From the IMG/VR virus record IMGVR_UViG_2582580752_000008: a DNA stretch of 50,059 bases; one strand, given 5' to 3'. Positions 18,001-21,000 of this stretch are shown piece by piece. Positions within the stretch are counted from its first letter, which is position 1, and every line of letters starts with the position of its first letter. The position numbers were made by a program. Origin of the DNA: a virus (Duplodnaviria > Heunggongvirae > Uroviricota > Caudoviricetes).

Positions 18001-21000
18001 AATACCGGTCTTTCAACTTGCTGGCTTTTTCGACAAGAGTTATTGGTATGTCACGTTAACCGGAAAAGGGAAAAAGACATGCTAAAACAGCAGGATATGA
18101 CAGAAACCGCCAGAGTGGTGTTTAATGAATTAAGCGTTACCGAACCGGCGACAGTCGGGGAGATTGCGCAGAATACTTACCTTTCACGCGAACGCTGCCA
18201 GTTAATACTGACCCAGCTGGTTATGGCGGGTCTGGCAGACTATCAGTGCGGTTGTTACAGACGCATTCAGTCCTGAAGGCTTTTTATTTGTGGTAAATGG
18301 GCGGCTGGTGGGGGGGGCGCACCTGTCAGTCCTTTGCTTATGTGTTGATGATAATTTACCTTTTGGGGCTATAATTGAGCTAACCAATTGCTAATGAAAG
18401 TAAAATTATAATGGCTGTTGTCTGTTCAGTTATCATGGTTTGCTCCCCAATTAATATTTTTCTTGAAAAGGATACGTTGTCACTTAAGCCAGGCTCAGTC
18501 GTTCTGGCCACCAAATGCATCAGGGAGCTTTTCCTTATGCATTATGGCAAAGTTAAAATTGTCGATATAAGCGAATCCGTCGTAAGTCAATATCTGGAAA
18601 GTCAGCATAAGCTGACGAGGACTCGTCTGACTGACATTCCGCTTTACCTGTTGCTGGAACCCAACAATCCTGCGTTGGCTGCGGCTTTAATTACCAGCCA
18701 GGGATTTTCCGGAGAGGTCACGGATATGTTTCTTATGATGGCCTGCCTGTCTCTGTTTGAAACAGATGAACGGATGTCATTGTTTTTAAGTGGATGTTTA
18801 TCCAGCATAAGTGCCAAAGTCAGGGCGATAATTCAGACAGATATATCAGCAAGCTGGACGCTTGGTGCGATTGCTCTACAGTTGCATATGAGTGAGAGTT
18901 TGTTAAAGACAAAACTGAAAAATGAAGGGGGCATGTTCAGTCGCTTGTTGCTGGAAGAGCGGATGCGTGTTGCTGTAAATATGTTATGTTCCCGGCATGG
19001 ATATGGACAGGCTATAGCAGAAAAATGCGGTTATTCAAGCAGGTCCTACTTTATTTCTGTATTTCACCGCTATTATGGCTTCCCGCCAGACAGATATGTA
19101 TCCAGGCAAGGGCTTGATTATTGATTTTCATCTGATTATTATTTTTTGGCTCGGCCCTTTAGCTCAGTGGTGAGAGCGAGCGACTCATAATCGCCAGGTC
19201 GCTGGTTCAAATCCAGCAAGGGCCACCATCACAAACCGCCATTAGCTTATCAGGAAGAGCAGACGACACCATAACAGGGTTGTTGGTGCGGGGCCGGGTC
19301 CCCGATGGCGGTCCATTATCGGTATTCTGCGTTGTTAGCTCAGCCGGACAGAGCAATTGCCTTCTAAGCAATCGGTCAGTGGTTCGACTCCACTACAACG
19401 CGCCACACTTATTTTCCAGGCTCGCTTCGGCGGGCCTTTTTTGTATCTGCGCCACGCCCGGCGCATATCAACCACAGAGCCTTTCGGGGGTGAGCTTACG
19501 GAGTGGTCAGTGTGACTTTCTCTGTGGGCAGATCGCTCCCGGGCGTTGGCTCACCCACCCAAAGGAACGTCACGATGTTTGGAATCTTCAAAAAGAAAAC
19601 CCGCAGAGCGGCAGCGGAAATTAAAAAGTTTGAGAAACGCGATCTGGCACAGGCGGTGATTAACGCTGCATACCTGGTGGCCTATGCAGATGGTGAATGC
19701 GAGGCATCCGAGAAAGCGAAGATCGAACAGGTCTTACGTAATCAGCCTGCGTTGTCTGCGTTTACCTCGGAAATTAATGCGATTAGCGCAACTATTATCG
19801 GTCAGCTGGATACCAATTTTAAAATTGGTCGTCGTGCGGCGTTACGTGAGATCGAGGATGTGAAACACGATACGCGTGAAGCGGAAGATGTGCTGGATGT
19901 GGCGGTGGCCATTGCGGAGGCAGACGGCGAAATTGAGCCGGAAGAGCGCAAGGTGCTGGAAGAGATTGCCGGTGTTCTGGGTCTTCGTCTGGAGAATCAC
20001 CTGTGACGGTAAAACTGCGCCTGGCTGTGGCTGCACTCCTGCTGTTTCTGGTGGTGATGGTGGATTTCACCAGCAGAATCATGTCGGTGCTGGCGGATGG
20101 GGTGCTGGTCTGCGGCATTGTGGTATTGCTGTGGCCGGTGATAAAAAGAAACAGCCTGCATAATGCTTGATTTTTTTGTTTGCTGTTTATTAAAAACACT
20201 TCTGCATGGTGAATCCCCCTGTGCGGAGGGGCGATCAGCAACCAGGTATATGGGATAATCGCGGATTCAGGTGCTGATACTGAATTCACCGGGAGGCACC
20301 CGGCACCATGCAAGAAAAAGAATGTGCATGCAAACATGCCCCTCTCCGGAGGGGCATTTTTTATGGGTAAAAAATGCCCGAATGGGTTCGGGCAATAGCA
20401 TGAGATACTGATATTGTTGTGTTGTTATCGTGTGGATTTTAACCAGGGTTTATCAGGCTGCGCAACTGCGTGGCCTTTTTTCATTTCTTGGGCTGTAGTC
20501 CCCGTGTGTCATTCAGGCTTCCGGACTACAGCCCACTCCATATCTGATTTAATACACTATCCCGGCCGGGAGGAATAATGACATTTAAACATTATGATGT
20601 TGTCAGGGCGGCGTCGCCGTCAGACCTTGCGGAAAAGCTGACACACAAACTGAAAGAGGGCTGGCAGCCGTTTGGTAGTCCGGTGGCCATAACCCCTTAT
20701 ACCCTGATGCAGGCGATTACAGCAGAAGGTGATGTGGTGGTCAGTGGTGCAACTGAGCCGGATTGGTACTACGTCATCGTACTGGCCGGGCAGTCCAATG
20801 CCATGGCTTACGGTGAAGGGCTTCCGCTGCCGGATTCATACGATGCTCCGGATCCGCGCATTAAACAGCTGGCGCGCCGCAGTACAGTTACGCCGGGTGG
20901 GGCTGCATGCAGATATAACGATATTATTCCGGCCGACCACTGCCTGCATGATGTGCAGGATATGAGTACGCTGAATCATCCGAAGGCAGACCTGAGCAAA

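Follow-up and report, generated by a model that had tools for sequence, protein, structure and literature searches.

The stretch of DNA analyzed here (the window; 50,059 nucleotides, nt) belongs to an Escherichia coli lambdoid prophage deposited in IMG/VR as record IMGVR_UViG_2582580752_000008, and the element in question is a pair of adjoining genes, tciA and tciB, in its late operon. The chromosome of strain 99-3311 was used as the reference locus (L001), and window positions 19100-20600 were found to be 99.8% identical to it. Based on the sequence alone, an earlier note had described a TerB-family protein of 143 amino acid residues (aa) and a possibly coupled open reading frame (ORF) of 55 aa whose GTG start overlaps the TerB stop, and had called for homology searches of both; these searches bore out both descriptions. 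TciA matched Pfam TerB (PF05099) over residues 26-138 (E 2.9e-16; 60.2 bits, cut-off 24.4) and phrog_632 over its full length (E 1.7e-69), and TciB matched Pfam DUF3927 (PF13064; E 4.3e-17; 62.3 bits, cut-off 25) and phrog_1470, ‘TciB-like’ (E 4e-30). At the junction, the end of tciA (CAC CTG TGA) is read in the +2 frame as the start of tciB (GTG ACG), which gives a 4-nt GTGA overlap. A Shine-Dalgarno (SD) sequence, AAAGGAA, lies about 9 nt 5′ of the tciA ATG, and GGAG lies 8 nt 5′ of the tciB GTG. The RefSeq coding sequences at the same place in L001 are named ‘tellurite resistance TerB family protein’ and ‘DUF3927 family protein’. The element is already known, as tciA/tciB of phage P1 (GenBank AF234173) and from Pfam DUF3927, the PHROGs and RefSeq; the earlier note had missed that the pair is this named P1 module.

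To locate the cassette within the late operon, the window was aligned with Shiga toxin (Stx) phages by blastn. Homology to the Stx2 phage Min27 ends at window position 19453 and resumes at 20186, with stx2A-stx2B lying between these points in Min27; the cargo cassette was therefore delimited by the two breakpoints, and it nearly coincides with the interval 19450-20170 that had been placed at the stxAB position from the sequence. Thus, the cassette replaces stx2AB between identical flanks. The right flank is also common to Stx1 phages (Stx1_EH1992) from position 20190. In stxAB cassettes of the Min27/933W type the insertion point is identical, with the ileZ-argN-argO tRNA block and its terminator on one side and the STnc100/AgvB/nanS-p flank on the other, whereas the cargos themselves are unrelated: the Stx phages carry toxin genes, and the covariance model described below detected no tciA-type leader 5′ of stx. 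Taken together, the locus is almost certainly a tciA-tciB moron cassette in which a leader precedes the genes of a cytoplasmic TerB-family protein and, coupled to it in translation, a DUF3927 membrane protein of about 50 aa; it takes up the variable cargo slot of a late operon of the lambdoid type, where Stx phages carry stxAB.

The linkage of the two genes was then analyzed in three sets of loci. Among 80 near-identical IMG/VR prophage loci, tciB was kept with its GTG start and the 4-nt overlap in 79. In a second set of 80 diverse viral loci, whose TciA is 30-37% identical to the N4-like query except in four close relatives of phage Pollock, an ORF matching the DUF3927 profile starts between -8 and +1 nt from the TciA stop, again in 79; 49 distinct TciB sequences were present among these diverse loci. 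When species-representative bacterial genomes were searched with TciB only, 19 loci were found (Enterobacterales, one Pseudomonas and two unclassified bins of metagenome-assembled genomes), and TciA lies directly upstream in 17 of them. The earlier note had made its reading depend on the small ORF being conserved with TerB in related prophages, and by these three counts it is so conserved. Among natural alleles, pN/pS was 0.05 for tciA and ∼0.3 for tciB, and both genes are under purifying selection. Given these values and the synteny over many phage lineages, tciA and tciB are real genes rather than chance ORFs, and tciB is a conserved partner of tciA.

The pair is very common in E. coli prophages: at least 800 of 5426 complete E. 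coli genomes contain the tciAB DNA of the window with a coverage of 80% or higher, and where a genome had any match, the median number of places was 4. Short E. coli matches to nt 13-87 of the cassette query (window 19587-19661), which carry the label ‘DUF3927 domain’, were rejected as pseudogene remnants among insertion sequence (IS) elements. DUF3927 is a small family, with 119 clusters (50% identity) in a collection of 1.84 billion representatives. Its members are always effectively standalone, since the few longer matches are frameshift or chimera artefacts. Four apparent TerB-DUF3927 fusion proteins (P0124, P0186, P0249 and P0289) were likewise rejected, the junctions being out-of-frame read-through or chimeras.

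A tblastn search against phage genomes showed that the pair is homologous to tciA/tciB of phage P1. The P1 proteins show 42% identity to the window TciA over the full length (E 8e-24) and 58% identity to the window TciB over the core, and both belong to the Pfam and PHROG families of their window counterparts. In P1 and in the window alike the order is tciA-tciB with the stop and start abutting or overlapping, and the transcription unit is silent in the lysogen, a property that is inferred for the window. In P1, the C1-operator-controlled ban promoters precede tciABC; thus the P1 setting is the ban operon, whereas that of the window is a lambdoid late operon. P1 differs further in that a third gene, tciC, encoding a 35-aa protein with one transmembrane (TM) segment, follows tciB. 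No TciC-like ORF was found after the window tciB, where the sequence is the STnc100 flank common to Stx phages; tciC is probably not a defining part of the module, since it was seen only in the P1/P7 lineage. The conserved leader of the window tciA was not detected 5′ of P1 tciA. The labels ‘tellurite/colicin/cell-division’ were given to the P1 genes by homology only, and the P7 homologue is annotated terB/upf69.4. P1 tciA/tciB have been reported to be differentially transcribed during P1vir infection.

Adjacent tciA-tciB pairs were found in lambdoid phages (JLK-2012, Evi and Klebsiella phage 5 LV-2017), in the P1-like phages P1, P7 and D6, in virulent N4-like Schitoviridae (Pollock and FSL SP-076), where the pair lies in the early region adjoining the dUTPase gene, and in Pantoea phage LIET2 and Pseudomonas phage phiK7B1. 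The 240-kb Erwinia jumbo phages (e.g., Asesino) also carry the pair, with a diverged partner. The lytic-phase settings of the pair (the ban operon of P1 and the early region of N4-like phages) argue for a role during lytic growth and not in the resting lysogen. A role restricted to lysogens would leave unexplained why temperate lambdoid, P1, P7 and D6 phages share the pair with obligately lytic phages of the N4-like and Erwinia jumbo groups. A linkage to tRNA genes, suggested by the window, P1, JLK-2012, Asesino and phiK7B1, was considered and rejected as a general feature, since a tRNA gene lies within 2.5 kb in only 6 of 80 diverse loci.

The profile of TciA relatives matched Klebsiella pneumoniae TerB (PDB 2JXU) with an E value of 2.9e-15 (query 12-137, chain 18-144), and an all-alpha TerB-like fold was predicted. 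Two paired ADG-x5-E motifs are present, in which D39/G40/E46 and D117/G118/E124 show little or no variation; this putative site in the acidic core probably binds a divalent cation. Residues 1-22 (MFGIFKKKTRRAAAEIKKFEKR) carry a net charge of +7 and show a hydrophobic moment of 0.5-0.6, while the remainder, an all-helical core, has a net charge of -13; close relatives all have G3 and K7. These properties fit an N-terminus that would act as a membrane-binding amphipathic segment.

TerB of the K. pneumoniae ter cluster thus shares with TciA its family, size, predicted fold and paired motifs, and in both settings the next gene encodes a membrane protein, TerC in the ter operon and TciB in the window. 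The window gene differs in being phage-borne, and none of TerC, TerD, TerE, TerZ and TerA accompanies it: no terC, terD or terE was found within 9 kb on either side of tciAB in the annotated L001 locus, and TciB shows no detectable similarity to TerC. These comparisons bear on the annotation ‘tellurite resistance protein’, by which the pair would be a lysogenic-conversion trait against tellurite, oxidative or metal stress. Membership of TciA in the TerB family and the lower oxidative damage conferred by the ter cluster (PMC11003894) speak for such a trait. It is nevertheless highly improbable, given that the smallest ter construct reported to be tellurite-resistant is terBCDEF (PMC11003894), that terC, terD and terE are missing from the neighbourhood, that expression is predicted to be late-lytic, that virulent phages carry the pair and that the P1 names rest on homology.

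TciB has basic residues at both ends (K4 and R6; K48 and R49) and a hydrophobic stretch of ∼43 residues between them. Its length and charge pattern suggest, by the positive-inside rule, an N-in/C-in hairpin, a topology compatible with the two TM segments proposed in the earlier note. D21, D32-G33 and P45 are conserved or nearly invariant (a D-x10-DG core), and R25, in the middle of the hydrophobic stretch, is conserved together with D21 and D32. TciB was also considered as a TerC fragment or a holin, and no Pfam family other than DUF3927 was matched even at E ≤ 10. A role in lysis timing, in which TciB with TciA would adjust the triggering of a holin or pinholin, or the proton-motive force, shortly before lysis, is consistent with the holin-like size and charged ends of TciB, with the lambdoid late-operon position 5′ of the lysis genes, and with Pseudescherichia-type prophages, in which the pair lies immediately 5′ of holin-like genes. 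The pair is, however, away from lysis genes in P1 and N4-like phages, TciB contains no dual-start motif, similarity to Pfam holin families is lacking at the same threshold, and the interval from Q to the lysis genes is a general cargo slot that also receives stx, so that adjacency is little informative; we regard this role as decidedly unlikely.

The expression of the cassette was assessed from its surroundings. No sigma-70-like promoter was found by a consensus scan between the intrinsic terminator that follows the tRNA-Arg gene and the tciA ATG. From the upstream terminator and the lack of such a site, tciAB expression probably depends on Q-controlled late transcription: the cassette is likely to lack its own promoter and to be expressed chiefly once the prophage is induced and RNA polymerase modified by Q arrives from pR′ by read-through. 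Most transcription starting at the tRNA or AraC promoters would end at the terminator, whereas Q-modified polymerase from pR′ would continue. Late expression of stx2 in the same position by Q-dependent read-through is established, and since the insertion point is identical, tciAB would share this expression logic.

A conserved structured leader of ∼135 nt was found 5′ of tciA. The cassette itself contributes 121 nt ahead of the ATG, and the conserved element begins earlier, at the position given in Table 1. It consists of a hairpin (GCGCC/GGCGC), a helix (CCACAGAG/CUCUGUGG), an inner stem, an invariant CCUUU and the SD sequence. Between the window and Klebsiella/Enterobacter-type prophages the leader keeps 76-89% nt identity, while the adjacent tciA keeps 55-62% nt and 41-45% aa identity. 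The region 19406-19580 folds more stably than shuffled sequences (z = -3.6), and 98.8% of cells were paired in the consensus structure, against ∼40% in slid controls; covariation comprised only a few compensatory events. With a covariance model built from 13 sequences, matches outside the training set were obtained directly 5′ of tciA in 11 of the 19 bacterial loci (85-160 bits; one more match was weak, at 44 bits), and 5′ of tciA in an Erwinia jumbo phage (weak, 43.7 bits), whose helix, CCGUAGAG/CUCUACGG, contains two further compensatory pairs. No Rfam family matched the leader at E ≤ 1. The invariant CCUUU is a possible anti-SD sequence and could pair with AAAGG of the SD, so that translational control is possible; control of translation or RNase processing of late-operon morons is a reasonable guess for the role of the leader, which is a new side observation of this analysis. 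The leader was also located at 1092-1221 of locus L004, and a diverged second copy was found in the window at 24145-24285, ending at the ATG of the P22_AR_N gene.

As to function, TerB is a reported partner of the membrane protein TerC (PMC11003894), and phage inhibition and resistance to colicins have been associated with the ter cluster (PMC8123226). We tentatively favor, at rather less than even confidence, a membrane-associated TciA/TciB complex that would act in lytic growth to preserve the energized inner membrane of the infected cell or to exclude secondary attack. At the inner membrane, TciA and the TciB hairpin would jointly form a minimal analogue of the TerB-TerC pair. Such a complex would keep the cytoplasmic membrane of the lytically infected cell intact and energized against secondary phage DNA entry, pore-forming colicins or pore-forming abortive effectors of the host, and it would be protective until the phage's own holin fires. 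Pseudomonas phages Lana and Ebordelon, where TerB is followed by a non-homologous small protein with one TM segment, keep the pattern of TerB plus a small membrane protein and were counted for this reading. In a bolder and more doubtful form of it, tciAB and its leader would be a self-contained ‘membrane-guard’ module, a minimal machine of TerB and a micro-membrane protein made only in lytically infected cells, that blocks superinfection or neutralizes pore-forming abortive or colicin attack, and the leader would represent a new class of cis-regulatory RNA common to several late-operon morons.

Several observations weigh against a TciA/TciB membrane complex of this kind. AlphaFold2 modeled TciB alone as a single long continuous helix, and the artefactual junctions of the fusion proteins leave these without support for an interaction between TciA and TciB. 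P1 tciA, tciB and tciC are reported to be dispensable for plaque formation, and no functional study of phage TciA/TciB, DUF3927 or phage TerB was found in the literature searched. The promoter scan covered the sigma-70 consensus only. Vibrio phages have TerB without a membrane partner; in phage K481, TerB is followed by a terminator. Conversely, in phage 434-type prophages, found in 680 of the 5426 E. coli genomes, the DUF3927 protein lies behind a 247-aa protein with four TM segments, without TerB; TciA and TciB are therefore not strictly obligate partners.

The 434-type arrangement was also observed in its own right: in phage 434 (locus L005, 2612-3844), the cargo of the stx slot consists of the four-TM protein (no Pfam match), the DUF3927 protein and a 62-aa membrane ORF, and this cargo is found in E. 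coli genomes about as often as tciAB.

TerB domains also occur in the validated defense systems Shango, Bunzi and Dionysus, for which a role in membrane surveillance has been proposed. In these systems, as in tciAB, a TerB-type domain (SngA, BnzA and DinB, respectively) goes together with membrane-associated components. They differ from tciAB in their helicase, ATPase, MAEBL or pore-forming-toxin partners, and in their location in host defense islands, whereas tciAB is phage-encoded and is present in virulent phages. By analogy, the pair could serve the lysogen as a prophage anti-phage defense or abortive infection system, in which TciA would sense membrane perturbation and TciB would depolarize the cell on infection by another phage. 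The pairing of a TerB-domain protein with a membrane pore-forming protein in Dionysus is in line with this, as are the moron slot, the multicopy occurrence of the pair in Shiga toxin-producing E. coli (STEC) genomes and the conserved acidic residues inside the hydrophobic segment of TciB, which could line a pore. No significant match was obtained in PADLOC-DB v2, however (best for TciA, PDC-S48, E 0.0035, 14.5 bits; nothing for TciB); the obligately lytic N4-like and jumbo phages carry the pair; little expression is to be expected in the lysogen from a cassette behind terminators with no recognizable promoter; and the P1 pair is under C1 repression. Defense of the lysogen is thus considered unlikely.

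The same systems could instead be the target. As counter-defense, TciA would block the TerB-dependent systems of the host as a decoy or competitor (Shango, Bunzi, Dionysus and the phage inhibition exerted by the ter cluster), and TciB would direct it to the membrane. TciA is a full-length look-alike of cellular TerB, the pair lies in lytic-phase transcription units, and it is present in virulent phages, among them jumbo phages, which are targets of the TerB-containing Dionysus system. This explanation is quite unlikely, considering that TciA is strongly conserved, unlike many fast-evolving anti-defense genes, and that host TerB systems are by no means universal among the bacteria these phages infect.

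The action of TerB has been a standing question ever since resistance to tellurite, colicins and phages was linked with the ter cluster, and TerB domains have meanwhile been recognized in a number of anti-phage systems. With its two genes and ∼600 bp, the TerB module described here, shared by at least four very different phage lineages, makes TerB biochemistry much easier to approach than the multi-gene ter cluster does. The result is at the level of annotation, and the breadth of the pair over unrelated phages and its conserved leader merit attention. For STEC biology, the stx slot is thereby documented as a general cargo slot, of which tciAB is among the commonest occupants in non-Stx prophages.

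Table 1. Features of the window in and around the tciA-tciB cassette.
Feature	Position	Strand	Basis or remark
Q-like late antiterminator gene	16426-16980	+	DUF1133, weak Phage_antitermQ match; RefSeq coding sequence in L001
pR′-like promoter	16977-17006	+	TTGACT-18-TATATT; promoter scan
isrK-like short RNA	17013-17090	+	ends in intrinsic terminator 17069-17085
C4-like RNA	17116-17200	+	followed by ORF6N antirepressor gene
tRNA-Ile2 (CAT)	19153-19228	+	tRNA call
Degenerate argN-like remnant	∼19236-19310	+	colinear with argN of Stx2 phages
tRNA-Arg (UCU)	19329-19405	+	tRNA call
Intrinsic terminator after tRNA-Arg	19418-19437	+	8-bp stem, 6 G-C pairs, T run
Conserved structured tciA leader	19442-19574	+	∼135 nt; covariance model, folding
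Cargo cassette (leader, tciA, tciB)	19454-20185	+	loss of homology to Stx phages
tciA, 143-aa TerB-family protein	19575-20006	+	ATG start; Pfam, PHROG, tblastn
tciB, 55-aa DUF3927 membrane protein	20003-20170	+	GTG start; Pfam, PHROG
STnc100-family small RNA	20175-20368	+	terminator 20336-20357; starts right flank common to Stx1/Stx2 phages, not tciAB-specific
AgvB (anti-GcvB) small RNA	20369-20430	-	terminator 20394-20375
nanS-p-type esterase	20578-22428	+	DUF1737 + SASA + DUF6645
Lysis region	22873-25468	+	RefSeq L001/ORF annotation
Class II holin	22873-23079	+	gene separate from tciB
YdfR/DUF1327	23084-23428	+	lysis region
Lysozyme (endolysin)	23479-24012	+	lysis region
P22_AR_N/ORF11CD3 antirepressor-like gene	24283-24852	+	inserted between endolysin and Rz
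Rz	24995-25468	+	lysis region

The surroundings of the cassette are summarized in Table 1. The order Q, pR′, tRNA genes, cargo, nanS-p-type esterase and lysis genes, which had been read from the sequence as that of Stx-converting phages, holds as far as the elements are concerned; the layout is not simply Q, pR′, tRNAs, since ∼2.1 kb with the isrK- and C4-like RNAs, an antirepressor gene, a small ORF and an AraC-type gene lie between pR′ and the tRNA genes. By analogy with lambda pR′/tR′, the pR′-like promoter and the terminator of the isrK-like RNA are presumed to be the start of the late transcript and tR′.

Directly 3′ of the Q-like gene, at 17000-17835 (+), Rfam matches to c4-a1b1, isrK and C4 antisense RNA are followed by the ORF6N antirepressor gene; placed where the late transcript begins, this arrangement is reminiscent of a P1 immI-like or Gifsy-1 isrK/anrP-like module for antirepressor control. 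An AraC-family regulator of 237 aa is encoded at 18411-19124 (+), between the Q region and the tRNA genes, with a promoter-like site before it at 18348-18375. Of the NCBIfam models, YdeO scored highest with 108 bits, well short of its cut-off of 348; GadX and HilD came next. From its apparent own promoter, the protein could be a regulator of host genes expressed in the lysogen.

Another promoter-like site lies just 5′ of the tRNA-Ile gene. The tRNA block is colinear with ileZ-argN-argO of Stx2 phages, and the terminator behind it lies within the left flank common to these phages. Within 19229-19328, the acceptor and T-arm portions are conserved, the anticodon region is diverged and no ARAGORN call was made; the argN-like remnant is probably a decayed tRNA-Arg gene. 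On the other side of the cargo, the STnc100 (+) and AgvB (-) RNAs stand tail to tail before the esterase gene, in the flank common to Stx1 and Stx2 phages.

At the position of the P22_AR_N gene, L001 has different small ORFs, although it is otherwise 99.8% identical. Other Rfam matches in the window were RalA, the antitoxin RNA of RalR (1557-1735, +), DicF (7204-7255, -), the Sok antitoxin RNA adjoining a Hok/Gef gene (14656-14830, +), and a truncated ALIL pseudoknot at the end of the window (49988-50059, -), which was taken as an IS3-type frameshift element.

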